Made by a program: the position numbers and the translations under genes. Shown piece by piece: positions 231-44,878 of a stretch of DNA of 45,038 nucleotides. Source of the DNA: Candidatus Peribacteria bacterium (GTDB lineage: Bacteria; Patescibacteriota; Gracilibacteria; Peribacterales; Peribacteraceae); assembly GCA_009691305.1 (NCBI GenBank), contig SICS01000002.1, positions 1 through 45,038 on the forward strand, written 5' to 3'. Each line of letters begins with the position of its first letter. Position 1 is the stretch's first letter. The notes under the pieces were generated by a model. It was not told the DNA's origin, made no database searches, and was given only the letters and a program-made list of their open reading frames with translations.

Positions 231-279
231 TGTCATCCCGAGTTTTTCGCTTCGGAGAAGCGAAAGTATCGAGGGGTCA
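231..279 (+). repeat. REP-like hairpin element, copy 1 (variant)
   Basis: TGTCATCCCGAG, then stem TTTCGCTTC / loop GGA / stem GAAGCGAAA, then GTATCGAGGGGTCA. Same architecture as the copies at 27.6, 31.1, 43.5, 43.6 and 44.8 kb. Lies just 3' of the convergent pgeF-like gene. Confidence 0.6.
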
Positions 280-288
280 TTAAGTCTC

Positions 289-1008
289 TCAACTTCTTTT
301 CAGCCCACCAACAAGCATGTTACTATGACCTGTTTTGACCATGTCACGGTCGCCCCCGCGGTAGGTCCAGTAGGTCTGCGGATTGCACCGCGTGCAGTCG
401 GGATGACGCTCGAAATGTTCAGGGGAAACTCCGAGTTCCAGAAATTGCGCTGTCGCAGCGCCTTGGAGATCAGCAAATTTTCCGTTGATGAATTCGGTCG
501 AGATATTTGGAAGCTCGCGTGCCGGGTCACTGAATTCCGCACACTGTTTACAGATCGACGGTCCCGCAGCGACGAGCGTCTCTCCCGGTGCGATGCCCCA
601 CTCCCCTTTCAGCACTGTGAAGAATTCTGGAATCGCCCCCGCGATCAGCCCTCTCCATCCCACATGCAAAACGCCACAGACATTCTGCGTCGGCGCAAAC
701 ATGACGAAATTCTGGCAGTCCGCCCACCGCGTGCAGAGGAGGAGATCAGGGGCATCGGTGAGCATTCCGTCTGCTTCTTGGGAGCGGTTGAGGTCCTGGG
801 AGCGGGCTGTCATCCTGAGCCCGTCGAAGGACGGCCCGCGTACGACCACCGTCCGCTTTCCATGCGCCTGATTCAATCCCGCAGCGTCTTTCATTCCAAG
901 AGTTTTCGCTGCAGCGGCGTCACTCCGAATGTCGTCCTCTTTTATGAAGATGCTGACGGCGATGCGGTCTGCAAAAGGCCGGAGGAAAAGAAAAGGAGAT
1001 TGGATCAT
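289..1008 (-). CDS. pgeF: YfiH/PgeF-family (DUF152, Cu-oxidase_4) purine nucleoside phosphorylase / peptidoglycan editing factor
   Basis: ORF 289..1107 minus contains the family motifs HVGWRG and C-terminal CTRCNPQTYWTYRGG. I start it at the internal ATG at 1008 (MIQSPF...) because the upstream part would overlap the divergent gene. Confidence 0.8.
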   Translation of the reverse strand: MIQSPFLFLRPFADRIAVSIFIKEDDIRSDAAAAKTLGMKDAAGLNQAHGKRTVVVRGPSFDGLRMTARSQDLNRSQEADGMLTDAPDLLLCTRWADCQNFVMFAPTQNVCGVLHVGWRGLIAGAIPEFFTVLKGEWGIAPGETLVAAGPSICKQCAEFSDPARELPNISTEFINGKFADLQGAATAQFLELGVSPEHFERHPDCTRCNPQTYWTYRGGDRDMVKTGHSNMLVGGLKRS

Positions 1009-1028
1009 TAAGTATACTATAGGTGTGT

Positions 1029-1649
1029 ATGGCGTTGAAGCAGAGCACATACTGGTCCAAGAAATATCCTGTGAAAACACAGGGGGTGCATCCGTTTGCA
1101 AAGGCAATGTTCAAACGCCTTCCGAAAAAGCCGGGCAAGCTGCTCGATTTGGGATGCGGATATGGTGACGATGCGCTGTATTTTGCACGTCGCGGATGGA
1201 ACGTAACGGGTCTGGATTTTTCTGCAGAGAGCATGCGCAGGCTGCGGAAGCGACTGGAGAAGAAAAATGTTGCAGTGGTTCCGGTGCAGCATGACATCAA
1301 AAAACGCCTGCCCTTCCCCGACAATTCATTTGATGCGCTCTTCGCCCATCTATCCGTGCATTACTTTGACGATACGACGACAGAGCGGATCTTTACAGAA
1401 ATGCGCCGTGTGCTGCGAAAAGGTGGGCTGCTATTTGTGAAATGTAAATCCGTCGATGATGCACTCTATGGGAAAGGAAAGCGGATAGGGTCAGATACGT
1501 ATAAATCGGATCACGTCCGACATTTTTTCAGTGCTGACTACATGCGGGAAAAACTTCGTCACTGTGAAATAAAAAATATCCGCAAATCTTCAGGGATCTA
1601 CGACACCCATAAATCCGCATTCGTCGAAGCTTTCGCAAAGAAAAATTGA
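1029..1649 (+). CDS. class I SAM-dependent methyltransferase
   Basis: SAM-binding motif I LLDLGCGYGDDALYFARRGWNVTGLDFS and overall Methyltransf_11/25-like layout. First ATG is at 1029 (the ORF track starts at GTG 1023). Confidence 0.8.
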   Translation: MALKQSTYWSKKYPVKTQGVHPFAKAMFKRLPKKPGKLLDLGCGYGDDALYFARRGWNVTGLDFSAESMRRLRKRLEKKNVAVVPVQHDIKKRLPFPDNSFDALFAHLSVHYFDDTTTERIFTEMRRVLRKGGLLFVKCKSVDDALYGKGKRIGSDTYKSDHVRHFFSADYMREKLRHCEIKNIRKSSGIYDTHKSAFVEAFAKKN

Positions 1650-2426
1650 CTATAACGTGTCCAATAGATGCGGAATTTGCCCAATCACATCGCGCGTCGT
1701 GTAGGCAAAGCCTTTCTCGTGCGCGAGGATCACGCCTGCGCGTTTGATCACCTTGCTCGCCATCACGCATGCCTCCGCCGGTTTGACGCCCTGTGCGACC
1801 AGTCCGCAGATGAGCCCGGCAAGTGCGTCTCCTGTTCCGCCAACCGTGAGCCCCGCGTTACCGCCTTTGGTACTCTTCACTTTTCCATCGGTTCCGGCCG
1901 TCTGGTCTATTTTTGCCTTGAGGTGGATCACGACGTCAGATGTTTTCGCAGCCTCGCCGATCTTCTTCGGATCAATGCCCATCCGTTCCAATTCACCCAG
2001 GTGCGGCGTCACGACAACAGTTTTTCCTTTCGCGGCAGTCAGTGTCCACGATTGTAGTGCAGTTGCATCGAGGATCATGGGGCAACGGGCAGAGGTGATG
2101 AGTTCTTGAATCAATTGTAGAGCGCCAGGCGTACGACTCAGCCCCGGACCGATGACCGCGCAGTCCACGGTCGCAAGTAATTCCAGTAGGGGCGGAAGAT
2201 CTTTCGCCCCTAATTCATTATCCAGAAACGGATGGACCTGAAAATTGAGGGATTGCATTCGCGCAACTTCCTGATGAATTGCGGGGAGTGCGAGGTAGAT
2301 CAGATCAACTCCGGACGCTTCTGCTGCGAGTGCGGAGAAGATAGGTGCACCGTGCTGATGCAGCGAGCCGCCGATGATGGCCACCTTTCCATTCTCGCCT
2401 TTGTGGGAATCAGAGGGTCGTTGCAT
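1650..2426 (-). CDS. nnrD: ADP-dependent NAD(P)H-hydrate dehydratase (YjeF C-terminal / carbohydrate kinase family)
   Basis: N-terminus HKGENGKVAIIGGS and C-terminal GGTGDALAGLI motif, typical of the YjeF_C family. 258 aa. Confidence 0.85.
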   Translation of the reverse strand: MQRPSDSHKGENGKVAIIGGSLHQHGAPIFSALAAEASGVDLIYLALPAIHQEVARMQSLNFQVHPFLDNELGAKDLPPLLELLATVDCAVIGPGLSRTPGALQLIQELITSARCPMILDATALQSWTLTAAKGKTVVVTPHLGELERMGIDPKKIGEAAKTSDVVIHLKAKIDQTAGTDGKVKSTKGGNAGLTVGGTGDALAGLICGLVAQGVKPAEACVMASKVIKRAGVILAHEKGFAYTTRDVIGQIPHLLDTL

Positions 2427-2519: not shown

Positions 2520-3911
2520 ATGTCCCTCGACCACCAATTGCACAATGGCGACACTCAAACGGAGCTTTCTCCTTCACGTTCACGGGAATCCAAACGTTCA
2601 CGGGGATCCAACGGCCACGTCAAAAGCCCATTGGAGACATACCTCAAAGAGATCGGTGAAGCGCCTCTGCTCACAGCCGGTGAAGAAAAGGAGTTGGGCC
2701 AGAAGATCAGGGCGGGTGATACGGAAGCCCGTGAACGCATGATCCGTTCGAATCTACGCCTTGTGGTGGGCATTGCGCATGGCTTTCTCGGCAAGGGTTT
2801 GGGATTGCAAGATCTTATCCAAGAAGGCGCACCCGGGTTGATGCGTGCCGTGCAAGGGTTCGACCCCGAATTCAACACGCGCTTTTCAACATATGCCACC
2901 TACTGGATCAAGCGGTCGATACGTCAAGCAATTGCCGATAAGGCAAGAAACATCCGACTTCCTTCCTACATGCCTTCAAAGCTGGCTCGTTGGAAAAAAT
3001 TGAGAGAGGAATTGAACGAGCTTTTCGGATACGAGCCGTCCTTCGACCAAATCGCCGATGAGTTTGGCCTCAAGAAGAACAGGATAAAGCAGCGGTCGCT
3101 CTTCAGGCAGGCTCTCATCAGTTCGAAGTCGACATGGCAGGATGGTGGTCCCAGCGGCGAGGCCCACATCGATGAAATGGTGCAGGATGAGAGAGAGGCA
3201 GCTGCTGAAGAGAAAATTATGGACGCCGAAAATATCGGTCTCATTTTGGAAATAATTGACCAATTGGATCCGCGCGAAGCCATGATCCTTCGCTTGCGCT
3301 ACGGACTGGCTGACGAGGAACCGAAAACACTCAAAGAAATTGGCGAGTCAGTTGGCCTCACCATGGAGCGTGTCCGCCGAATTCAAAGCGAAGCGATCGG
3401 GAAAATACAAAAAAAACTCCATCTATCTCCCGATAACAACGGCCAAGCCCTACAAGCGGAAGTGCGCATCTTTGCGCCCCCAACACCGAGCATGCTCATC
3501 CACGAGCATCAGGTGCTGCTCCGGCACCGCCTCCTTATCCTGACTCAGGTGAGCAAATTTCCTGGGCCAAAAAGAAAGCTCTTCCTTCGCTCAAAGGAAG
3601 TGAATCGGCAGCAATATTCACACCTGCAGTATTGCCGTGAGGCGATGAAGACCCTCTTGGAACCTGACCTGATGCAAAAATGGGAATTTGTTCTGGGGGT
3701 GTTACAGAATGTCCAGAGCATAGCCACAGACAAGATAAATATCTGCCTGCAGGGGCATGACATGAGCAAACAAAATTTTAATAAATACATGCTACGGATG
3801 GAGAACATCTCCTTTGCACACACCGTTGGAAAAATATCGGAGAAAGATCCGGCGAGGGCGTTCAAGGAAGTAGATTTTCTACAAAGTACAAAGCAGCCTA
3901 AGCGCGAGTGA
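2520..3911 (+). CDS. sigma-70 family RNA polymerase sigma factor (RpoD-like) with ~165-aa C-terminal extension
   Basis: Region 1.2/2 (YLKEIGEAPLLTAGEEKELGQKI, RMIRSNLRLVVGIAHGF, LQDLIQEG, FSTYATYWIKRSIRQAI). Region 4 (LDPREAMILRLRYGL, TLKEIGESVGLTMERVRRIQSEAIGKIQ). The frame stays open for a further ~165 codons with no recognisable domain. ATG at 2520; the track starts at GTG 2496. Confidence 0.85.
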   Translation: MSLDHQLHNGDTQTELSPSRSRESKRSRGSNGHVKSPLETYLKEIGEAPLLTAGEEKELGQKIRAGDTEARERMIRSNLRLVVGIAHGFLGKGLGLQDLIQEGAPGLMRAVQGFDPEFNTRFSTYATYWIKRSIRQAIADKARNIRLPSYMPSKLARWKKLREELNELFGYEPSFDQIADEFGLKKNRIKQRSLFRQALISSKSTWQDGGPSGEAHIDEMVQDEREAAAEEKIMDAENIGLILEIIDQLDPREAMILRLRYGLADEEPKTLKEIGESVGLTMERVRRIQSEAIGKIQKKLHLSPDNNGQALQAEVRIFAPPTPSMLIHEHQVLLRHRLLILTQVSKFPGPKRKLFLRSKEVNRQQYSHLQYCREAMKTLLEPDLMQKWEFVLGVLQNVQSIATDKINICLQGHDMSKQNFNKYMLRMENISFAHTVGKISEKDPARAFKEVDFLQSTKQPKRE

Positions 3912-5004
3912 AACGTTTGAATGCACCCGATACTTCAGCGGCGATGCGCTCCCGGAACCGCTCCGCCGAAAACTGTTTGGCATGTTCACGGATTCCGGTG
4001 GGGTCAAACTGTATGGTTGAGGACTTCTGCAGCGCCTGGATGAGCGACGGCACGGTCTGCTCGGCGAAGAAGAGGCCGGTCTTGCCGTCGATAACTGTAT
4101 CAAGCGTCCCGCCTTTGCCGTACGCAATCACGGGGGTGCCGCAAGCCTGCGCTTCTACCGGCACGAGACCGGCGTCCTCGTGCGTCGGGAAGAGGACGGC
4201 GCTGGCGGAGGCGTAGAGCAGGGGGAGTTCTTCATCCGTCACGCGTCCGCGGAAGGTCACGGTCGGGCCGGCCATCGCTTTCAATCTCCGCTCCTCCTGG
4301 CCTTTGCCGACGATCACGAGTGGCAACCGGAGCTCATTGGCGGCCGAGACCACGAGGTCGAACCGCTTGTACGGCACCAGCCGTCCCACGGCGAGCAGGG
4401 ATGACCGCTGCTTCGCGTCGACGAGCGCAGGCTTGAAGAAGCGGTCCTGCACCGGCGGCGGGATCACCGTTGATGTCCTCCCGTAGATGCGTTCGATGCG
4501 CCCCGCCGTCTCGCTCGAGTTCGCGATGAACGCGTCCACGCGCCTCGCCGTCGAGAGGTCCCACCGACGCAGGCGCATCAGTTCGCGCTTTACACGACGG
4601 CGCAGGATGTGCGGCACGTGGAAGTCATCCAGGTACTGGTTTTCCATCTCCCACGCGTAGCGCATCGGCGTGTGGCAGTAGCAGACGTGCACTGCGTTGC
4701 TCGGCGGGATGATCCCCTTCCCCACTGCATGGGATGAACTCACGATCACATCGAAGCCGTGGAAATCGATCCCCTCTATCGCGCGTGGCATGAGTGGCAG
4801 CAGCACCTGGTGCCGTCGAATCATTCGGTAGAAGCGTTGCAGTGGCGTCACGTGGATCAACCGGTCATCGAACAGTCCCGGCAGCTGCGGCTTCGCCACC
4901 GTTGTAAAGATGGGGCTCTCGGGCCAAAGCTGGTGCAGCTCCGCAAGCGCGCGCTCGGCTCCGCCTGCGGTCGTCAGCCAATCTGCAACGAGAGCCAATT
5001 TCAC
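3898..5004 (-). CDS. family 4 (GT-B) glycosyltransferase
   Basis: VKLALVADWLTTAGGAERAL N-terminus, and a C-terminal Glycos_transf_1 region (LVIVGKGQEE, EDAGLVPVEAQACGTPVIA). The 100 upstream codons of track ORF 3898..5301 look non-coding, so GTG 5004 is taken as the start. The 3' end overlaps the sigma gene by 14 nt (convergent). Confidence 0.85.
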   Translation of the reverse strand: MKLALVADWLTTAGGAERALAELHQLWPESPIFTTVAKPQLPGLFDDRLIHVTPLQRFYRMIRRHQVLLPLMPRAIEGIDFHGFDVIVSSSHAVGKGIIPPSNAVHVCYCHTPMRYAWEMENQYLDDFHVPHILRRRVKRELMRLRRWDLSTARRVDAFIANSSETAGRIERIYGRTSTVIPPPVQDRFFKPALVDAKQRSSLLAVGRLVPYKRFDLVVSAANELRLPLVIVGKGQEERRLKAMAGPTVTFRGRVTDEELPLLYASASAVLFPTHEDAGLVPVEAQACGTPVIAYGKGGTLDTVIDGKTGLFFAEQTVPSLIQALQKSSTIQFDPTGIREHAKQFSAERFRERIAAEVSGAFKRFTRA

Positions 5005-20703: not shown

Positions 20704-20910
20704 ATGTTGGTGCTGACTCGAAAAGTCGGTGAGTCCATTGTTATCGCTGATGACATTGTAGTCACCATTCTCAGCGTCGAGGGTACCGGACGGGGGCAGC
20801 GCGTGCGCCTCGGCATCACTGCCCCACGGGCAGTCCCCGTCGACAGGGCAGAGGTCCATCGTCGGCGCAGGAATGCGCCGGTCGCCCCGCCAGCAAAAAG
20901 AACGTCCTAA
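20704..20910 (+). CDS. csrA: carbon storage regulator CsrA
   Basis: [47 protein letters not shown] matches the CsrA family. SD GGAGGA lies upstream of ATG 20704 (the track ORF starts earlier, at 20647). Confidence 0.88.
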
Positions 20911-20924
20911 AGGACGTCACAAAG

Positions 20925-20955
20925 AGGCCAGCACCGTGCTGGCCTTCTTTATTTT
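20925..20955 (+). terminator. rho-independent terminator after csrA
   Basis: AGGCCAGCAC / GTGCTGGCCT stem followed by TCTTTATTTT. Confidence 0.6.
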
Positions 20956-21007
20956 GAATCTCTTCTTATTCTTCTCAATCCTCTTTTTCCTCTCTATCCT
21001 TTGGTCC

Positions 21008-22462
21008 ATGTCCCTCTCCCTGTACAACACGCTTTCCAAAAAGGAAGAAGTCTTCGACTCCATTCAGGGGAAAAGTATAACAATGTATACCTGCGGACCC
21101 ACGGTCTACGGCCGGCCACATATCGGAAACTACTCGTCGTTCCTCATGGCCGACTTCTTGCGGCGATGGTTGGAGGTGAGCGGGTACGCAGTGAAGCATG
21201 TAAAGAACATCACCGACGTCGGGCACCTCCTTCATGATGCCGACCACGGTGACGACAAGATCCAGAAGGAGGCGGAGAAGGAGAAGATGCATCCGCTCGA
21301 GATCGCCAAGCGGTACACCGAGCACTATCTCGAGGATGAAAAGGCATTGAACATGCTCGAGCCGTTGGCGCGACCGCGTGCGAGCGAATATGTCCCGCAA
21401 ATGCTCACGATCATCAAGACGCTGCTGGAGAAGGGGAATGCCTACGAGACGGAAGACGGCATCTATTTCGCAGTGCTCACTTTTCCGCAGTACGGAGCCC
21501 TTTCTGGCAATACTTTGGCCAACCTGAATGCCGGTGCGCGCATTCATGTGGATGAGAACAAGAAGCACCCGGCCGATTTCGCGCTCTGGAAAAAATGCGT
21601 TGGCGACAATGGTCGCCATGTCCTGCGCTGGAAATTCTCAACAGGGGAGTTGAGCCACACCGAAGGGGAGGATGTGATGAGCGGGTTTCCTGGATGGCAC
21701 ATCGAATGCTCCGCGATGAGTTCCTCCCTCCTTGGGCAGCAGATTGATCTGCACACAGGCGGTGAAGATAATATTTTCCCGCATCACGAATGCGAAATCG
21801 CACAGAGTGAGGCGTCGACAGGGAAACAGTTCGTCCGTTTCTGGCTCCATAAAAGGAGGATCGATCTCGGTGAGGCGAAGATGTCAAAGAGTCTTGGCAA
21901 CGTTTTGACGGTCCCCGATATCGTCGCGAAGGGGTACTCGCCACTCGATCTTCGGTACTACCTACTCTCCGTGCACTACCGGACAAATTTGAAGTTCGCG
22001 TGGAAGGGGATAGATGACGCGCGCAAAGCGCGGACGAAAATCGTCGAGTGGATCGACGAGATCAAAAAGATGTCTGCGAAAGAGGGGACTGACCACCTCA
22101 AAGAGATCGCTGTGTTTATCGACGACTTCACAGCAGCTCTGAATGCAGATCTCAATACTCCTGCAGCCCTAGCTAAAATCTTTGATGTCATGTCGTGGTC
22201 TCGGAACCAATCGCTGTCGAAAAGTTCGCTCAGTGTCCTGCAGTTGTTCACCACACAGATCGAAAAAACATTCGGCTGCTTCAAACCCGGACCCGAGCCC
22301 GAGCCCGTGCCCGCGAACGTCCAACAGCTTGTCGACCAACGGAAGGCCGCCCGAGACGGGAAGGATTTTAAAGAATCCGACCGTCTGCGCGACGCCATCA
22401 AGGATGCAGGCTTCGACGTGAAGGACAGTGCCACCGGGCAGAGCGTCCGGAAGGCCTTTTGA
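21008..22462 (+). CDS. cysS: cysteine--tRNA ligase
   Basis: MYTCGPTVYGRPHIGN (HIGH), KMSKSLGN (KMSKS) and Zn-binding region GWHIECSAM. Start at MSLSLYNTL (21008); the upstream part of the track ORF is rejected. Confidence 0.95.
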   Translation: MSLSLYNTLSKKEEVFDSIQGKSITMYTCGPTVYGRPHIGNYSSFLMADFLRRWLEVSGYAVKHVKNITDVGHLLHDADHGDDKIQKEAEKEKMHPLEIAKRYTEHYLEDEKALNMLEPLARPRASEYVPQMLTIIKTLLEKGNAYETEDGIYFAVLTFPQYGALSGNTLANLNAGARIHVDENKKHPADFALWKKCVGDNGRHVLRWKFSTGELSHTEGEDVMSGFPGWHIECSAMSSSLLGQQIDLHTGGEDNIFPHHECEIAQSEASTGKQFVRFWLHKRRIDLGEAKMSKSLGNVLTVPDIVAKGYSPLDLRYYLLSVHYRTNLKFAWKGIDDARKARTKIVEWIDEIKKMSAKEGTDHLKEIAVFIDDFTAALNADLNTPAALAKIFDVMSWSRNQSLSKSSLSVLQLFTTQIEKTFGCFKPGPEPEPVPANVQQLVDQRKAARDGKDFKESDRLRDAIKDAGFDVKDSATGQSVRKAF

Positions 22463-23257
22463 GCCTTTTTGTACACTTTCCTTGGCACAGAGGGGCTAAA
22501 AGGGCCACTTTCGTCATTAAATCTTGTCGTTATTGTCACTTTGCACTAGGAAAATAAGTCCGCTTTCGCTTCTGACTGGCCTTAATGTCCTCATAACGTT
22601 CAACAGGGACGTTTTAGGGGTATTTCGGGGTAATTCTGTGAAGTTCAATAGACCTTTTGGTAACTGTATTTCACGTCCCTTGGGGCATAGCGAACCGAAA
22701 AACCCTTTTTGCAACAGCATTTGACCCCTGCATTCGAGGGTACCGACCCCACTTTCCTACCGGAAATTCTTTAGAGAAACGCTGTATAAACTCGTTATAC
22801 ATGCCGGAAATGGCTGCTCGATCTTTGGGGCCTGCGTAACAGAACCCCCTCCCGGGCGTTATCTGCACTGCCACCTCTTATGGGTCAGAGGCTTGATTCC
22901 TACGCGTTCTGTTCGGTAGGATCCCGCTGATCCGCACTCAATACGAAGTATGGGAGCGTGGTCGGCGCGTACGTGATCTTTTACATATCGGCCCCTGCCT
23001 CCCTCGGGATGACAGGTCTCATCACATCGCACTCCTTATATAGGCGTGATGGTCGTGCTTCGAAAAGGTTCCGGTTGTACTGAACCCCCATGGTGGGGGA
23101 TTTCTGCTGTTCACGAGAAGAGTGAACAACGTATCGGGTTTGTTTCATCTCTTTATATTTAAGGAGGAGGGTGCCCATTTATTGCGGCACCCGTTCCCAA
23201 CGCAATCACGGTGCGTGTTACAACTGGTTTTTTATTTCTTCTTTTACTTCCTTTCTT

Positions 23258-26200: not shown

Positions 26201-27544
26201 AGCCTTTCCGGCATCAAGCTGAACGGCACCTGCAGCGCCAGCTGTGATATCACCGTTACGACGGTGACGACGCAGGTCTGGACGCTCGTCAGCCAGGGTG
26301 ACCTCTACGTCACGCTGGACACGACTCCGGTCCGCAACAGACAGCTTCTCGGTGGGACCCTCGCGGATTCGATCTTCCGCTTGAACTTCCACTCTGAGAA
26401 CGAAGACATCGATGTCACGGACATCCAGCTCAACTCCTCTGGTACGTTGGCTGGCTCCGTTGACCGTCTTGAGCTCTACAAGGAAGGTGCAACGACGCCG
26501 TTCGGCTCCGCCACCATTGGTGGATGTGGATCTGACCGCACTCGTTCCCTCCAGGTCAACGTCGCTACGAGCTCCGGCTCCCGCGCCTTCTGTTTGAAGA
26601 TGCAGACCCGCCAGCTTGTCGTCTCCAAGGGCACGGACGTGAAAGTCCTCGTCAAGCCCCGCATGAAGACGGACGTTGACGGTGCAATTTCCGGTACTGG
26701 CGTCACCTTCTTCCTCGTCAGTGATTCCGCATCGGACAACTCCTCGGGTTCCGGCGCTATCCGCGCTCGTGGCGACCAGTCCAGCAACAGCCTCGGCCGC
26801 AACGATGGTGACAGCACCAACGAAGGTGAAGTCTTCATCGGCATCGCCACTGCTTCCACGAACGGAGGCAACGGCGCCGGCATCAACCGCAGCATTGTTG
26901 GTAGCAAGAACTTCACGGTGCTCAGCAAGATCCAGACGATCGCCAACGCCAACCCCGATGCAAACGGCACCAACGTGCCGACCGGAGTTGCGGACATCGG
27001 TCAGTTTAAGATCTCCGCTGCACCAAACGGCAACTCGAAGAACGGCTTGAACAAAGTCGTCCTCTCCGGCGTTGTGTTCAACGTCAACGCTACGAACGTC
27101 TTGCTCGACGGTTCCACCTTCAAGTTCTACAACAAGTCGAACTCCACGGTGACCCGCACATGCACGGCGTATAACCAGACGACTGGTGTCGCCATCGCGT
27201 CCACCACGACGTCAGGCTCGTTCGTCGTCTCCTGCACGTTCTTGAACAAGACGGCAGTGACGCTCGTGAACACCACGATCGACCAGGGTTCGGATCAGAC
27301 GTTCGTGCTCCAGGCCAACGTCACCAACCCGAAGGTCAGCAGCACGTCCACGTCCACGCTGCAGGTCCAGCTTGTCAACTTCGACTCGTCTGCACTCACC
27401 TCCTTCGGTACGGCCTCCACTTCGAGCCACTTCGAATGGGTTGATAGCGACAGTGCTACGGTTGCATCAGCTACGACCTCCTCCGTCTTCCGCTGGGTTG
27501 AGTACCCAGAGACAACGATCAAGTCCACGAGCTACCAGGGTTAA
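23258..27544 (+). CDS. S-layer-type surface protein: signal peptide, three SLH domains, Ig-like and beta-rich repeats (~1428 aa)
   Basis: Signal peptide MDISRFKKVLAGVSATAIMLTQMGTAIAA. Three SLH-like modules (YSDVASGVWFEEAVNAF...NRAEYVKLLV; FDDVKSSAWFYAYMEEA...NRAEAAALIVRAF; FVDNPSGQWYTESIQTA...NRAEMVVMLYRV). The rest is a long Thr/Ser/Gly/Val/Asn-rich sequence, nearly Cys-free. Confidence 0.85.
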   Translation: MDISRFKKVLAGVSATAIMLTQMGTAIAAYSDVASGVWFEEAVNAFTSDGILDKSQPRFRGGENANRAEYVKLLVMLNGGLLSTPPAVASFDDVKSSAWFYAYMEEAGKEQWVRGDGNCYGSHPCYARPGANINRAEAAALIVRAFGLEATGAAPQFVDNPSGQWYTESIQTAADHCVLQGDDSTGRVRPSDNMNRAEMVVMLYRVDQGLTYGTDCGMGGPSASAGISGAKATSSSMVEVEFNTSMDKMSAETASHYAVTGASPAVSVSSAKLVSSDTVELTLSGQLSGGNEYTVTATDVKASDGTVFSDSTSFNGYTALPTSNSTLQVALSSKNPVGDTLPQGAVGVTMASMDITASCDDAAAITDLTILHEGFGANTDIDGVYATVNGARISRKRTIDSKDQTATVHLSTPLEIAACKTVTVDITADFSSTAITSAEHNLAVELPSDVLSNAKQVTGNFPLRGSTFKVAAVRSGRVSIAYRTVSPTEVEVGNKGVVVGKFEVSTDSTEDQTIYSMTVEQNGTIHDGDMSNMKIRRSDGTVLSNTVESTVGDFATFVFDPPFTILEGDKMNMDIIADINGGAGDTIKIHFEETSDIFAVGSLYGYGVNGQLYGSRIALATETTTLPATVTVDAGEFTVEIDGPTQQSYTRDQNEAVLANVIFTTGGERINVRKLFVLVQGATSSGGTLNSNGGTSYDDISEVLENVQLRNKATGRSIDGVRITDTGASGQTSSVGTYQIYRFDDFTINGKETYEIRVDFIDNGTGNNPKGGDTFRVHICGEPTEISSVANTTGCAFGGHLSSTITSFQMQIEGLSTGDKVSDVRPRGTITGNSQRIADASLTIAVRATGTSDTAVKNSKNINMVRFETRAGEAKDILLTKLIFNSATGVTVLQSGQNYTLWVDTDGDGKVDTVLQKGVTSQASKITFSELTGGGFVIPKEKTVVFELHSDIAASLPSDEIQLKFSTADTFVEAETVDRGSSLSGIKLNGTCSASCDITVTTVTTQVWTLVSQGDLYVTLDTTPVRNRQLLGGTLADSIFRLNFHSENEDIDVTDIQLNSSGTLAGSVDRLELYKEGATTPFGSATIGGCGSDRTRSLQVNVATSSGSRAFCLKMQTRQLVVSKGTDVKVLVKPRMKTDVDGAISGTGVTFFLVSDSASDNSSGSGAIRARGDQSSNSLGRNDGDSTNEGEVFIGIATASTNGGNGAGINRSIVGSKNFTVLSKIQTIANANPDANGTNVPTGVADIGQFKISAAPNGNSKNGLNKVVLSGVVFNVNATNVLLDGSTFKFYNKSNSTVTRTCTAYNQTTGVAIASTTTSGSFVVSCTFLNKTAVTLVNTTIDQGSDQTFVLQANVTNPKVSSTSTSTLQVQLVNFDSSALTSFGTASTSSHFEWVDSDSATVASATTSSVFRWVEYPETTIKSTSYQG

Positions 27545-27587
27545 TACCCAGATCGTTTGTTCTCCTGACTTCGCATAGTCACCAATG

Positions 27588-27614
27588 GCCCCTCTCGAAA
27601 GAGAGGGGCTTTTT
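27588..27614 (+). terminator. rho-independent terminator of the S-layer gene
   Basis: GCCCCTCTC-GAAA-GAGAGGGGC followed by TTTTT. Confidence 0.8.
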
Positions 27615-27616
27615 GG

Positions 27617-27716
27617 TATCTCGATACGTTCGTGGCTCCGCCACGAACTACTCGATATGACAGGTGCTGTCATCCCGAGTAGCCCGCAGCGGAGCTGCGG
27701 GCGTAACGAGGGATCA
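27617..27716. repeat. REP-like elements, inverted doublet (copies 2 and 3; REPIN-like)
   Basis: Reverse copy at 27617-27662 and forward copy at 27668-27716 (TGTCATCCCGAGTAGC-CCGCAGC-GGA-GCTGCGG-GCGTAACGAGGGATCA), head to head. The FemAB-type gene stop (TCA 27714-27716 on plus) lies in the last 3 nt of the forward copy. Confidence 0.75.
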
Positions 27717-28712
27717 TCCCAGGAGTTTTCTCTTCATTCGAAGCAGAGTTTTTGTGACGGGACGCAGAATGATTTCCTGCTCCGGGGGATACGTGATGAC
27801 CGAGCCGCCGAACTTGGCTTTGAATTCGCTGACGCTGGCCCAGGGGTGTTTTTTTAGTGGAGACGGCGACGTCTCCGCTTGGGGGGCGATGCCGAACAGG
27901 TCGTAGGAGGTGCAGCCGTGGGATCGGCAATACTTTATGGCTTCCCACTGCAGTAAATACGGAGCCATGAGCTCCCTGTGGGCGTTGGAGGAGGCGCCAT
28001 AGTAATACGTGGCCTGCGTGCCCCAGACGACGCCCAGGAGCCCTGCCACATGCGTCTTTTGGGCGGTCATGGCCAGCATCAGGAAGCTGCCGGGCAAACC
28101 CCTCAGGAAGTGCTCGTAGAAGGCTGCCTTGTGGCCGCGGAAGCTGTCCCTGCGTGCCGTCTCTTCTCCTAGGCGGGCATAGGCCTCGGTGTCATCCGAT
28201 TGCTCGACATCGATACCATGTTTTTCGGCCAGCCGGATGTTATAGCGGCCCTTGGGTTTCATTTGGGCGAGCAGTGCCTCATCATTCAGTGTTAGATCAA
28301 GAATCCGAGTCGCTTCAGGCATGACGAATCGGCCTGAGTTGCGAATTTCGGATTTCGGATTTCGGAAAGGTAGATGTGGTGAAAAATGAATAGTGAGAGC
28401 GCCATTCTCTTTTGCATCTGCAATGATTCTTTCTATAAAATCCGTAATCCGTAATCCGTAATCCGTAATCATAAGCGGTCCGCGCGGTATCTCCCACGTA
28501 CTCAGTCCAAGACTCGTCCTATCAATCACCACGAGAGCGGAGGCCATGATCTGCTCAGCATCCATCTGCGCATAAATCCGCACCTCGCGCTGAAGAGCTT
28601 TCTGAAATTGGCTCCATTCCAGCGACTGCCACAATGAACCTTCGGGGTGCGTCTTGATCCACTGATCATAGGCATGCAAATCCTCCGGCGATGTAAGGCA
28701 ACGAATATCCAT
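27714..28712 (-). CDS. FemAB-family peptidoglycan interpeptide-bridge (aminoacyl-tRNA-dependent) transferase
   Basis: [81 protein letters not shown] are family hallmarks. Confidence 0.85.
28342..28470. repeat. inverted CGGATTN heptamer arrays inside the FemAB-type coding sequence, read through in frame
   Basis: Plus strand CGAATTT-CGGATTT-CGGATTT-CGGAAAG (28342-28369). Minus strand CGGATTA x3 plus CGGATTT (28438-28465). Translated as [11 protein letters not shown] and [10 protein letters not shown] in the track protein. Confidence 0.8.
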
Positions 28713-29347: not shown

Positions 29348-29372
29348 CCACCCTGAGCTTGTCGAAGGGTGG
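29348..29372. repeat. short hairpin CCACCCTGAGCTTGTCGAAGGGTGG (possible terminator or REP variant)
   Basis: 6-bp stem CCACCC/GGGTGG just after the sod stop. The CACCCTGAG flank resembles the REP 5' flank CATCCCGAG. Confidence 0.35.
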
Positions 29373-31032: not shown

Positions 31033-31086
31033 TTCTTGAAAAATGAAACAGAGCCGAAGTATAGACAGTCACGCTCGCGTGTAAAG

Positions 31087-31193
31087 TCCCTCGTTACGAA
31101 ATCTGCTCCGCAGCTTTCTACTCGGGATGACATTTCGACTTGAATGTCATTCCGAGTAGCTCGCGGGGGATCCGCGAGCGTAACGAGGAATCA
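31087..31193. repeat. REP-like elements, inverted doublet (copies 4 and 5; REPIN-like)
   Basis: Reverse copy at 31087-31132 and forward copy at 31145-31193 (TGTCATTCCGAGTAGC-TCGCGGG-GGA-TCCGCGA-GCGTAACGAGGAATCA). The stop of the DHS-like gene (31191-31193) is the terminal TCA of the forward copy. Confidence 0.75.
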
Positions 31194-40724: not shown

Positions 40725-41385
40725 TTTTTGAGAAATGTTACTCATCGCAACACATGGATGCCTCGACTCTGCATTCCGATGAAGGACGTGGCCAGCAACG
40801 ATATGCTTCGGTGAGCCGCTAGGCAGGCGTTACCAGCCGAAGATTTCCGAATGGGGAAACCCCACGAGAGTTCTGTCTCGTGATCCGCTCACGCGGAAGG
40901 TCACTCTGTGAACTGAAACATCTCAGTAACAGAGGAAAAGAAATTAAATTAAAGATTCCCCCAGTAGTGGCGAGCGAACAGGGATCAGCCCAAACCGCGT
41001 ACTTGTACGCGGGGTTGTAGGACCTCGATATGTGATTCCTTCCTTTATAGAAGAACGTCCCTGGAACGGGCGGCCATAGAGGGTGATAGCCCCGTAAGCG
41101 AAATAGAGGAAGACACTAGAGGAATCCTGAGTAGGGTCGGACACGTGAAATCCGGCCTGAATCCGGGTGGACCACCATCCAAGGCTAAACAGATGCAGAG
41201 ATCAATAGCGGATAGTACCGTGAGGGAAAGGTGAAAAGCACCCCGGAAGGGGGATGAAATAGTCTCTGAAATGTGTTGCGTCCAAGGAGTCGGAGCGGAC
41301 TTGTTCCGTCACGACGTTCCTTTTGCATAATGAGCCAACGAGTGTGTTCTCAGTGGCGTGGCTAAGGCAGTTTCCTAGCCGGAGC

Positions 41386-41417
<32 letters not shown>

Positions 41418-41812
41418 TCGCTGGGACACGACCCGAAACCGGGTGAGCTATCCATGAGCAGGTTGAAGCCCGCCGAAAGGCAGGTGGAGGACCGAACCAT
41501 AGCGTATCGCAAGACGTTGGGATGACTTGTGGATAGGAGTGAAAAGCTAATCGAACCCGGAGATAGCTGGTTCTCCTCGAAATGCCTTTAGGGGCAGCCT
41601 CGTCGGGCACGGCGGGGGGTAGAGCGACTGTTTGGATGCGGGAGTCACCTCGACTTACCAAATCCTGACAAACTCCGAATACCCGCCTTTAATGCCGACG
41701 GGAGTGAGACAGTGGCAGCGAATTGCCATTGTCGTAAGGGAAAGAGCCCTTACCATTCGCTAAGGTCCCAAATTATCGTTCAGTGGGAAAGGTGGTGTAT
41801 GTGCATCAACAA

Positions 41813-41843
<31 letters not shown>

Positions 41844-42177
41844 TAAAGAAAGCGTAACAGCTCACTGGTCGACGCACGTATGCGCCGAAAACTCAACGGG
41901 GCTAAACGATAAACCGAAGCGGTGGATCTCCTATGTCCTTCGGGACGTAGGTGGTGGTAGAGGAGCGTTCCGTTCAGCTGTGAAGCAGTGTTGTGAAGCA
42001 TTGTGGAGCGTACGGAAGCGAGACTGTTGGCATGAGTAACTACTAGGCAGGTGAAAACCCTGCCCGCCGAATCCCCAAGGTTTCCCACGCAACGGCAATC
42101 GGCGTGGGGTTAGTCGGTCCTAAGGTCAGGCCGAAAGGCGTAGCCGATGGATAACAGGTCAATATTCCTGTACTTCT

Positions 42178-42345
42178 CGGGAATCGATAAAAGGGCGGTC
42201 GTTGAGAGTTTTACGAGCCTCTGTCTCTACCATTTTGTACATATACATAGACGCAGGTCTTCGACCTGCGGATCGCGCGTCGAAGACGCGCGCTATGTGT
42301 CCAAGATGGTAGAGATATGTTCGCGAAAAAGGATACTTCCGTTCT
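42178..42345 (+). other. ~150-nt insertion / expansion segment in 23S domain III
   Basis: Between CCTGTAC and GTGACGGGATGGGAAG, E. coli and Bacillus have about 25-30 nt and this gene has about 175 nt. It contains stem 42224-42233/42306-42315 enclosing two hairpins (GCAGGTC-TTCG-GACCTGC and GCGCGTC-GAA-GACGCGC). Confidence 0.6.
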
Positions 42346-42801
42346 AGGAGCGGTGTGACGGGATGGGAAGATCGCAGCGTGCGCATTGACTGCACGTGTA
42401 ACACGTAAGACGTTGAGAGTGGTAGGGAAATCCGCCACTTGAGTCGAGCGTGGAATCCAAATGGCTCCCGCGAGGGGGTCGAGTGCGTACCTTTCCGTCT
42501 CCAAGAAAACCATCGCTCACAGAGTTCCGGGAAACCGTACCGCAAACCAACACCGGTGGGGTGGTCGAGTAGACCAAGGCGAACGGGAAAACTCGCGTTA
42601 AGGAACTCGGCAATGAAGCGTCCGTAACTTCGGGATAAGGACTACCAGTCTGTAGTGGATTGGTTGCAACAAAAGAGGTCAGGCGACTGTTTATCAAAAT
42701 CACAGGTCCCTGCTAAGCTGCAAAGCAATGTATAGGGGCTGATGCCTGCCCAGTGTCAGAAGGTCACGTAAGGGGGTTTACGCCTCCGAACTAAGCCCTG
42801 A

Positions 42802-42855
<54 letters not shown>

Positions 42856-43044
42856 GGTCGAATAACCCCGTACCAGTCGCGCTTCGGCGCTCCGGTACAG
42901 GGCATGCTTGCCCGAATGATCAGCAATGATCAGCACTGAGGAATTTTTTCTAGATTTTGATAGTAAGTCTCGCGGTCGAGACCCGCGATGCCCCAAGCGA
43001 AAGCAAAGGGCGATCTCATAATTATTTTTTTGTTGGCGCCGAGC

Positions 43045-43062
43045 GCAGGCATACTTGCCTGC
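43045..43062. repeat. GCAGGCA-TACT-TGCCTGC hairpin inside the intron
   Basis: Exact reverse complement of 5044-5061. Confidence 0.6.
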
Positions 43063-43494
43063 AAAGAGTTAAGGAATCTCTCTAAAAATTCTGATTACAG
43101 ACCGTATTGTGGATACCATTCACCCCACGTCGCTCGCTTCGGCGAGCTATGCGGGGCAAACAGTGTAAAACGTCGCCATATGCTGGAACATCCGAGTATC
43201 CCCTATGCCGTAAGGTACGGGGTGCGGACAATCAGCAGGAAAGAATTTCTTATTTTTCTTCCATTCATTATGACACGTACCAAAGAATCTCCGGCTCTCG
43301 ACGACAAGCAATTGCCGAAGGGAGTAGATGGATACAATCTCGCCTTGATTGAAGCGGCACCTGCTGCCATTTGGCAGTTAGGTTTTGCAGAGATATGCGG
43401 GAATTACCGTCAGGAAATTCAGGAGTGCGGTGCATTCAGTGAATCGGATAATAAGAACTGATCCTCAGAGACTTTACGCGATGCCCGCGACTTG

Positions 43495-43540
43495 TTCCTC
43501 GTTACGCTCGTGACTCTGTCACGAGCTACTCGGAATGACA
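43495..43540 (-). repeat. REP-like element copy 6, in the P8 loop of the intron
   Basis: Minus strand reads TGTCATTCCGAGTAGC-TCGTGAC-AGA-GTCACGA-GCGTAACGAGGAA. Flanked directly by the P8 stem CCGCGAC/GTCGCGG. Confidence 0.75.
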
Positions 43541-43621
43541 GTCGCGGAGATGATAAAGTCCGATCCCTGTGGCGACACAGGGCGCGCGAAATTGAAGCGC
43601 GGCTAAAAAACAATCGTTATG

Positions 43622-43667
43622 TCCCTCGATACGAAAATCGCTCGGCGATTTTCTACTCGGGATGACA
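43622..43667 (-). repeat. REP-like element copy 7, in the 3' peripheral region of the intron
   Basis: Minus strand reads TGTCATCCCGAGTAG-AAAATCGC-CGA-GCGATTTT-CGTATCGAGGGA. Confidence 0.7.
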
Positions 43668-43725
43668 TAGGTGTAAGTGCGCTCCTGCAAGGGAGATCTC
43701 GGTTCACCACCGAGAGGAACGCGCT

Positions 43726-43790
43726 GAATTGAAAATTGATAATTGAAAATGGGAAATTATTTTCCATTTACCATTTTTCATTTTTCATTC
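43726..43790. repeat. AT-rich inverted heptamer-array hairpin near the intron 3' end
   Basis: AATTGAA-AATTGAT-AATTGAA-AATGGGA-AATTATT facing, on the minus strand, AATGAAA-AATGAAA-AATGGTA-AATGGAA. Confidence 0.7.
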
Positions 43791-44361
43791 GCATGTTTAT
43801 GAAGTTCCGACCCGCACGAATGGTATAACGGTCTGATCACTGTCTCGACGCGAGGTCCGGTGAAATTTCAATCCTGGTGCAAATGCCAGGTAGACCACGG
43901 TAGGACGAAAAGACCCTATGAAGCTTTACTGTACGCTGACATTGTTTCGTTGATTTGCGTGCGCAGAATAGGTGGGAGGCTTTGAGGCTCTAGCTTCGGT
44001 TAGGGCGGAGCCAACTTTGAGATACCACCCTCGCGTTTCGCCGAAACTCACCCTGTCTCTGAAACAGAGCGGGGGACAGTGTTTGCCGGGCAGTTTAACT
44101 GGGGCGGTTGCCTCCTAAAGTGTAACGGAGGCGCGCAAAGGTCCACTAGCGCCGGATGGAAATCGGCGTTGTCGTGTAATCGCACAAGTGGGCCTGACTG
44201 TGAGACTTACAGGTCGAGCAGGGACGAAAGTCGGTGATAGTGATCCGGCAGCCGGACAACTTATACTTGTCCTTACCACGTGGGTGGGCTGTCGCTCAAC
44301 GGATAAAAGTTACTCTAGGGATAACAGGCTGATCGGTTCCAAGCGCCCACAGCGACGAACC

Positions 44362-44478
<117 letters not shown>

Positions 44479-44518
44479 TGGCCTCTATCCTCCGTGGTCA
44501 CTTAGAAACGTGAAGAAA

Positions 44519-44551
<33 letters not shown>

Positions 44552-44609
44552 AACCTCTGGTGTACCTGTTGTCGCGTCAGCGGCATTGCAGGGTAGCTAT
44601 GTTTGGACG

Positions 44610-44642
<33 letters not shown>

Positions 44643-44785
44643 CCTTCTGAGATTGCGTTTCTCCATCAGCCCGCCGGAAGACGACCGGCTAGATCGGCCA
44701 CAGATGTACGTGCGGCAACGCATTCAGTCGAGTGGTACGAACGGGCAATTGAACATTTTTCAACCTTAGCCTTTAACAGCTAGGG

Positions 44786-44830: not shown

Positions 44831-44878
44831 TGTCACCCCGAGTAGCTCGTGACGGAGTCACGAGCGTAACGAGGGGCA
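44831..44878 (+). repeat. REP-like element copy 8, in the 23S-5S spacer
   Basis: TGTCACCCCGAGTAGC-TCGTGAC-GGA-GTCACGA-GCGTAACGAGGGGCA. The stem is nearly identical to that of copy 6 but in the opposite orientation. Confidence 0.75.

Follow-up and report, generated by a model that had tools for sequence, protein, structure and literature searches.

The 45,038-nucleotide stretch of DNA analyzed here (hereafter, the window), which comes from a Candidatus Peribacteria bacterium (contig SICS01000002.1), contains eight full ("complex") copies of a hairpin-forming repeat, a unit of about 50 bases, together with three reduced relatives. We propose that these repeats are non-autonomous copies of a cross-phylum family of hairpins with a tandem G.A core, and that the cognate enzyme of the family is a minimal SLX1-like GIY-YIG nuclease, a reading to which we assign a probability of roughly 60%. 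The proposal builds on a strand-specific fold with covariation, on conservation of the repeat across phyla, on an architecture in which inverted copies bracket the nuclease gene, on the lack of Y1 transposase genes in the loci searched, and on turnover of copies between relatives.

All eight copies in the window share the layout (T)GTCAYC-CCGAGTAG, an 8-bp variable arm, a 3-nt loop, the complementary arm and CGTAWCGAGG-GR (Table 1). The pattern CCGAGTAG-N19-CGTAWCGAGG has six exact matches in the window against none in 100 dinucleotide shuffles, and a covariance model (R1), built from cross-phylum copies and run on the window with filters off, returns exactly the eight copies that an earlier note on this DNA had listed (42–66 bits, E 1e-8 to 1e-14; none expected by chance), the next match scoring 17.6 bits. 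The description given there, of a dispersed, mostly intergenic palindromic family in which GTAG lies next to a covarying stem and copies occur as singlets and inverted doublets, is borne out as well. Seven of the eight copies are intergenic or lie within rRNA spacer or intron; GTAG, with helices on either side, is found in seven of them and in 143 of 144 unique copies overall; and both doublets are real, inverted, with their TGTCAT/GTAG ends face-to-face across spacers of 5 nt (doublet A) and 12 nt (doublet B). The stem, previously put at 7–9 bp, does covary, but its length is always 8 bp plus a closing G-C pair, with a loop of 3 nt, so that the GGGA tetraloop read in copy 5 is replaced by a 3-nt loop closed by a G.T pair (an alternative reading is a 5-nt loop). 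That every copy has a stem of its own holds nearly always, the exception being copies 6 and 8, which share the identical stem CTCGTGAC. The most diverged is copy 1, in which GTTT replaces GTAG; it folds into both helices described below (z -3.9) and lies between the end of a plus-strand gene and the stop of a laccase-domain gene at 289-1107(-).

For structural analysis, 144 distinct 57-mers were collected from loci seeded with the element, and a formal covariation test was carried out on 89 distinct copies from many phyla. The architecture consists of a tag (TGTCAYC in the window, CCGTTCRYC in other lineages), a helix P1 with a tandem G.A, an asymmetric internal loop UA/GUAW within which GTAG lies between the two helices, and a G-C pair plus an 8-bp helix P2 (9 bp in all), closed by a lineage-specific loop. 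The inner pairs of P1 are C1-G10', C2-G9', G3.A8', A4.G7' and G5-C6' (5'-CCGAG/CGAGG-3'), with the tandem G.A invariant; the sequence of P2 is free to vary, and in some lineages it includes a second CGAG/CGAG module. Rare P1 variants are compensated, as in TCGAG/CGAGA (found in window copy 2, whose core TCGAG...CGAGA reflects a C-G to T-A change) and CTGAG/CGAAG, and positions further out covary: -1:+1 is CG in 119 cases, GC in 11, TA in 5 and AT in 2, and -2:+2 is CG in 56, TA in 49 and TG in 30. The flanks, once taken for constant single-stranded tags, are instead the strands of this helix and covary. Among the 89 copies, paired cells make up 89.2% against 63.9% in shuffles, and in 13 of 15 pairs both partners have changed. 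The covariation score, 0.154 in shuffles, is 0.613 for the real copies, higher than in any of 500 shuffles (slid registers give 0.10-0.15), which upholds the compensatory-change signal that the earlier note had proposed as a check.

The repeat is also strand-specific. Helical positions hold G.T 59 times against 22 for A.C, and G.A 87 times against 15 for C.T, an asymmetry that identifies the GTAG-bearing strand as the folded form; folding energies do not discriminate between the strands, both of which fold equally well (z -3 to -4.7). The sequence 5'-YGAR-3' is the context in which tandem G.A takes a stable sheared form in both DNA and RNA, and the two G.A pairs of P1 are of the sheared type. 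In Peribacteria, including the window, the loop is GGA or GAA; Dehalococcoidia have CTT, and Alphaproteobacteria have either TTG or GAA. Interpretations of the internal loop as a K-turn, a loop E or a UAA/GAN motif were rejected, their registers clashing with the covariation-supported pairs.

An exact 18-base signature of the element, scanned against one genome per species, was found at no fewer than 117 loci. With fixed spacing and several copies per genome, it occurs in at least 10 phyla, the carriers including Peribacteria (of the candidate phyla radiation, CPR), Binatia, Dehalococcoidia, Anaerolineae, Alphaproteobacteria (Rhodospirillaceae, Sphingomonas), Bacteroidota, Gemmatimonadota, Armatimonadota and Spirochaetota, among others; an identical core over this range is at odds with the original view of a population confined to this lineage. 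A search of 2.9 million viral contigs returned no copies, and Rfam yielded no relevant match for the window at gathering score, for positions 27500-27800 at E up to 10, or for 35 related loci at E<=1.

All-against-all clustering of open reading frames (ORFs) in the 117 element-seeded loci revealed a small ORF of 93-106 aa that is common to Binatia and Peribacteria and encodes a GIY-YIG catalytic domain (PF01541, E 1e-16 to 1e-19). This gene is present in 5 of the 117 loci, in all five within ~150 nt of copies of the repeat, and in three (L018, L032, L071) it is bracketed on both sides, with the CGAGG ends pointing inward at 7-126 nt from the ORF. A cluster of ABC-ATPases near the element was rejected as a single-linkage artefact. 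Two surveys seeded with the protein, each of 80 loci, made use of a generalised hairpin (P1 + YYGAG...CGARR + P1'), which occurs 498 times in the first 80 loci against 44 in shuffled sequence. In that first survey the hairpin lies upstream of the gene in the plus orientation in 63 loci, downstream in the minus orientation in 73, and on both sides in 58; the corresponding counts in the second, broader survey, which spans Flavobacteria, Nitrospirota, Chloroflexota and Peribacteria among others, are 54, 52 and 38. Around the gene at 1501-1770, matches to R1 concentrate at 1432-1497(+) and 1760-1837(-), a pattern that the second set repeats. In many phyla the two bracketing copies are no more than tens of bases away from the gene.

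At loci that do not have the window-type element, the gene is bracketed by a simpler hairpin composed of the tag, the tandem-G.A core and a short cap: ccgttcgtgTCGAGcgaagTCGAGAcac in Novosphingobium and Erythrobacter, and tgtcaycCTGAGcttgtCGAAGgrtgaca in Nitrospirota, Nitrospinota, Eremiobacterota and Burkholderiales. A compensated GTGAG/CGAAC variant also flanks GIY-YIG genes, and Flavobacteria have the form gtcacTTCGAGTG-P2-tGTATCGAGAAgtc. The variant is identical on both flanks of a given nuclease gene, and for 56 of 64 nucleases the nearest protein relative shares the hairpin variant, against 16.5 expected. In Sphingomonas the nuclease locus is syntenic across species, and the adjoining hairpin is conserved with compensatory changes as its spacer drifts; an annotated sphingomonad replicon labels the gene "GIY-YIG nuclease family protein", between nrdR and an RNA methyltransferase gene. 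At two Sphingomonas loci (L145:1495-2580 and L198:1479-2527) the GIY-YIG ORF and the RNA methyltransferase gene downstream of it overlap, and in strain Leaf20 the ORF is open through the right-hand hairpin into that gene, an arrangement that recalls the fusion of GIY-YIG and SPOUT methyltransferase domains noted previously (PMC1564403).

The flanked nucleases, 95-106 aa long, belong to the UPF0213/YhbQ/COG2827 family, the bacterial SLX1-like group. Their closest solved structures are 1ZG2 (E 1.5e-20) and 1YWL (E 3e-17; "hypothetical UPF0213"), followed by SLX1 (E 2e-4); the UPF0213 structures date from 2005. SLX1 cuts branched and stem-loop DNA, recognizing structure rather than sequence. The flanked proteins share with SLX1 and UPF0213 the catalytic Y, Y, R, H and E residues, and differ from SLX1 in having neither the SLX4 partner nor the RING domain. 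In 82 flanked nucleases, Y8, Y18, R28, H32 and E65 are essentially invariant, and judging by these residues the enzyme looks active. Libraries of defence-system and phage families contain no match to the nuclease, and among NCBIfam models none matches at cutoff, the group I intron endonuclease family reaching E 0.006, far below its cutoff. A phylogenomic survey published in 2006 assigned these proteins to the Slx1 family in its minimal, stand-alone prokaryotic form, for which no role was known (PMC1564403), and in a literature search that covered papers available without subscription we found none linking GIY-YIG proteins to bacterial repeats of the repetitive extragenic palindromic (REP), REPIN (REP doublet forming hairpins) or MITE (miniature inverted-repeat transposable element) type.

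Comparison between relatives shows that the repeats turn over at the DNA level. Metagenome-assembled genomes (MAGs) of Peribacteria are syntenic with the 24-32 kb portion of the window at 66-80% identity. At the intergenic site A, the window has a doublet, two of these relatives a singlet (L001, L042) and a third no copy (L014). At site B, L014 keeps the left copy, the ortholog of copy 4, with compensated P2 changes (AAATTGC/GCAATTT); copy 5 is absent from its orthologous site, which amounts to a presence/absence polymorphism of one discrete unit. When the family was checked for MITE features, no target-site duplication was visible at the one clean presence/absence site examined, and no transposase-bearing parent was found. 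Freshwater metagenome runs that hold the window, as DNA only, include contigs with extra copies and other doublets; the contigs of these runs contain no clean excision alleles. Doublets of both polarities occur among the other loci, and three loci (L022, L034, L093) have inverted, gene-less pairs with their CGAGG ends facing. In four alphaproteobacterial MAGs (L023, L101, L104, L115), an extra half copy, CGTATCGAGGGA, lies 5-7 nt 3' of a full element; this may have arisen when the 3' half was duplicated, or may be a trace of the way in which units insert. A second, unrelated palindromic repeat (GTTCCACACCCCTATGGAAC-like) lies beside copies in Peribacteria (L006 ~2650, L071 ~3495-3525, L008 ~3080-3100).

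Under the proposed mechanism, the nuclease would recognise the folded hairpin, either in single-stranded DNA or in an extruded cruciform, via the invariant G.A platform and the tag, and would nick near the hairpin base. Host repair or replication could then duplicate, invert or delete units, yielding singlets, doublets of both polarities and collapsed CGAG scars. Like RAYT genes (those of REP-associated tyrosine transposases, discussed below), the nuclease gene would be kept at low copy in a stable position, and the window copies would be non-autonomous because that gene would be located outside the window, elsewhere in the genome. The parts of the scheme that we infer are that the nuclease binds and cleaves the hairpin, that its substrate is DNA rather than RNA, and the route by which units propagate.

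Several points weigh against this interpretation. The window contains no GIY-YIG gene, and the link to the nuclease in this organism rests on relatives, where, of four related Peribacteria loci, one has a full bracket (L071/L199), one has downstream copies only (L008/L274), and L203 and L206 have no complex copies. Common descent of the hosts confounds the match between nuclease clade and hairpin type, and contributes to it. That UPF0213 proteins would bind and cut such hairpins is a prediction, and since a hydrolytic GIY-YIG enzyme, unlike an HUH-Y1 transposase, cannot rejoin DNA, the propagation step is undefined. Wobbles of the G.U type and G.A tandems are just as compatible with an RNA structure, metatranscriptomes contain transcribed copies, and a hint of a regulatory role comes from the GAGG in the 3' half of the upstream hairpin, which could at the same time be the nuclease gene's ribosome-binding region. 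The orientation test described below relied on crude gene calls.

Among the alternatives, the one that fares best, which we regard as unlikely, is that a selfish GIY-YIG gene uses the hairpins as its homing or landing site and integrates between a pair of them, and that the repeats, rather than being its cargo, spread or persist by another route, whether as a host-selected structure or through another enzyme. GIY-YIG proteins are classic homing endonucleases, the gene always lies within an inverted pair, and the gene-less pairs with facing CGAGG ends could be read as such sites. Against this, the gene in Sphingomonas is found in different species at one syntenic housekeeping position (nrdR-GIY-YIG-methyltransferase) and not in many doublets. 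The protein does not have the DNA-binding extension typical of homing GIY-YIG enzymes, and its match to the group I intron endonuclease family reaches E 0.006 only. Moreover, so extreme a conservation of the core across phyla calls for a reader that is itself conserved, and no neighbour other than the nuclease is conserved.

Scarcely different in standing, and likewise doubtful, is an element acting at the RNA level, be it a 5'-untranslated-region regulator of the nuclease, an mRNA stabiliser or processing site, or a hairpin bound by CsrA or another protein, with the dispersed copies acting in cis. The fold is specific to one strand and includes wobbles of the G.U type as well as tandem G.A pairs. 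Relative to the nuclease gene, the upstream copy is in every case in sense orientation, with 12-20 nt between its end and the start of the gene, where the GAGG could serve as ribosome-binding site and the hairpin could occlude that region, and copies reach high depth in metatranscriptome assemblies. In metatranscriptome contigs the nuclease gene itself is at low depth, and the assembly breaks at 1433 and 1482 delimit a 50-nt unit, CCGTTCGTC...GAGGGA; assembly graphs break exactly at unit ends. What speaks against an RNA-level role is, in the first place, orientation: in tandem gene contexts 20 copies are sense and 36 antisense to flanking genes, so that the strand bias for which the earlier note suggested looking is absent; the downstream copy is antisense to the gene in every bracket; and doublets have both polarities, two window copies being antisense inside a 23S rRNA insertion with a sub-threshold group I intron core. 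In addition, units are gained and lost as DNA at the orthologous sites A and B, Rfam has no match even at E<=1, doublet A comes after a good intrinsic terminator, and the elements have no U-tract. The loops, GGA included, vary across lineages, which removes the basis for the suggestion that CsrA might bind NGA loops, and nothing ties CsrA to the element. The window does encode CsrA (PF02599, 20647-20910), in an ORF that, on mechanical calls, overlaps the start of a cysteinyl-tRNA synthetase ORF (20873-22462) by ~38 nt.

Two RNA motifs invite comparison with the repeat. The COG2827 RNA motif, a hairpin upstream of COG2827 genes, is catalogued as a candidate cis-regulatory RNA; like it, the present element is a structured element beside genes of the same protein family, but it also occurs downstream in inverted orientation and dispersed genome-wide, and has no match in Rfam. 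In linear order, the repeat resembles the hammerhead ribozyme (CYGAGUA-G[stem]C-GUAWC versus CUGAUGA-G[stem II]C-GAAAC), with G.A-type pairs stacked on a variable stem in both, and eukaryotic Penelope-like elements pair GIY-YIG nucleases with hammerheads. The identification as a hammerhead was rejected: U takes the place of both G8 and A13, the covariation supports a two-helix hairpin instead of a three-way junction, there is no cleavage-site strand, and Rfam gives no match. An intrinsic-terminator identity of the repeats was rejected as well, a T-run following none of the copies.

The weakest alternative, that of a classical REP/REPIN population moved by a RAYT (a Y1 HUH transposase) encoded elsewhere, which was the original explanation of these repeats, we consider very improbable: although GTAG adjoins the palindrome foot, the family is high-copy, mostly extragenic and includes inverted doublets, and GTAG-tagged REPs are known in several phyla, Chloroflexi among them (PMC3733652), a tblastn search with eight RAYT/TIRYT proteins from the supplement of the same paper (E<=0.01) found no RAYT or other Y1 gene in 197 loci plus the window (1.16 Mb, >270 copies), and the gene that does lie between inverted copies is the GIY-YIG nuclease. 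As RAYT genes are normally flanked by their own REPs, enrichment would be expected in element-seeded loci. REPs are, furthermore, lineage-specific apart from GTAG, whereas here at least 18 bases are identical across phyla; and GTAG is not universal in the super-family, being missing from the simple types and replaced by GAGTG in Flavobacteria.

The likeness to REPIN-RAYT systems nonetheless extends beyond the tag. Both comprise strand-specific hairpins with GTAG at the 5' foot and many intergenic copies, as singlets and inverted doublets, a small nuclease-type gene that keeps a stable locus between inverted copies, and turnover of copies between relatives. They differ in that the flanked gene encodes a hydrolytic GIY-YIG enzyme rather than a Y1 protein, that GTAG lies in an internal loop and not in a free 5' tag, and that the element core with its tandem G.A is conserved across phyla, leaving P2 free. 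CGTC-tagged REPs, which include Neisseria dRS3 and Rickettsia RPE-4/-6, are reported to have no associated transposase (Di Nocera, De Gregorio and Rocco 2013, PMC3733652). They resemble the present family in the 5' tag (CGTC/TGTC/CCTC, shared as YGTCAT), an AT-first C-rich stem, mostly inverted dimers and a distribution mainly in Alphaproteobacteria, including sphingomonads, plus distant phyla. Membership of the repeats in that group was rejected: the CGTC REPs form simple palindromes of 8-9 bp that have loops of 4-5 nt and carry a CCA tail (e.g. those encoding VIPAKAGIQ), with neither the tandem-G.A core nor the GTAG/P2 insert, whereas the element consists of two helices, an internal loop with G.A and a loop of 3 nt, and has no CCA tail. 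They are possibly a distant relation of this repeat family.

Taken together with the nuclease brackets, these comparisons suggest a second, undescribed "REP plus nuclease" system. The broader generalization, that UPF0213/YhbQ/COG2827 proteins are dedicated nucleases of ancient cross-phylum tandem-G.A hairpin repeats and form a mechanistically distinct counterpart of REPIN-RAYT, has in our estimate an even chance of being correct. If it is, the widespread UPF0213/YhbQ family (bacterial SLX1 homologues) would acquire a testable function, and GC-rich intergenic hairpins (...CTGAGCTTGTCGAAG...) in Proteobacteria, Nitrospirota, Chloroflexota, Bacteroidota and CPR, possibly also the transposase-less CGTC REPs, would be explained, as would the origin of a class of hairpin repeats, scattered over genomes of many phyla, that spawn spurious ORFs and fragment metagenome assemblies. 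An arrangement known only for the HUH-Y1 RAYTs would have evolved independently with a hydrolytic GIY-YIG enzyme and, since such an enzyme cannot rejoin DNA, the repeats would spread by a different, host-repair-dependent route. The 5'-YGAR-3' tandem-G.A platform presents a defined problem of protein-nucleic-acid recognition, and a structure- and sequence-specific nuclease of ~95 aa, should that be its nature, could serve as a laboratory tool.

Table 1. Full copies of the repeat and their reduced relatives in the window
Feature	Position	Core	Strand	Bits	Sequence and context
Copy 1, singlet	231..277	238-274	+	42.4	TGTCATC-CCGAGTTT-TTCGCTTC-GGA-GAAGCGAA-AGTATCGAGG-GGT; E 1.1e-8
Copy 2, left arm of doublet A	27616..27662	27619-27655	-	57.3	z -4.75
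Copy 3, right arm of doublet A	27668..27714	27675-27711	+	66.1	best model score; E 1.3e-14
Copy 4, left arm of doublet B	31086..31132	31089-31125	-	58.3	P2 AAAGCTGC/GCAGATTT, one G.A mismatch
Copy 5, right arm of doublet B	31145..31191	31152-31188	+	56.9	P1 = ATTCC/GGAAT
Copy 6, in 23S rRNA insertion	43494..43540	43497-43533	-	59.1	loop AGA; antisense to rRNA
Copy 7, in 23S rRNA insertion	43621..43667	43624-43660	-	57.5	loop CGA; antisense to rRNA
Copy 8, 23S-5S spacer	44831..44877	44838-44874	+	62.3	sense to rRNA operon
Simple-type relative	808..832		+	17.6	TGTCATC-CTGAG-cccgt-CGAAG-GAC
Simple-type relative	29348..29372		+		CCACC-CTGAG-cttgt-CGAAG-GGTGG; 10 nt past superoxide dismutase gene
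Collapsed copy	23000..23014		-	14.2	TGTCATCC-CGAG-GGA; tag + P1, single CGAG

Of the reduced relatives in the window, the first simple-type hairpin has the tag and tandem-G.A core of the full copies, with a short cap in place of UAG-P2-CGUAW. It lies inside the laccase-domain (PF02578) ORF at 289-1107(-) and leaves the reading frame unbroken, and is accordingly an intragenic copy. The collapsed copy corresponds to a half-copy recognized in the earlier note, which is real and is placed as given in Table 1; from its sequence, it may be either a deletion between two CGAG repeats or an unfilled site.

The 1457-aa gene directly before doublet A ends in a canonical intrinsic terminator (GGCCCCTCTCGAAAGAGAGGGGC plus a T-run, 27587-27615), so that the doublet is not needed for termination. 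The 23S rRNA gene (40731-44762) carries an insertion of ~960 bp at 42848-43811, right after CCTTGTCGGGT (E. coli ~1931), the last base of which is G. Within it, a group I intron core (RF00028) is recognized at a sub-threshold 29.3 bits over 43125-43582, a stretch that includes copy 6, and an ORF of 157 aa (42988-43461) has no Pfam match. The G+C content of the window is 0.61-0.65 between positions 4000 and 11000, against ~0.50-0.57 over most of its length.

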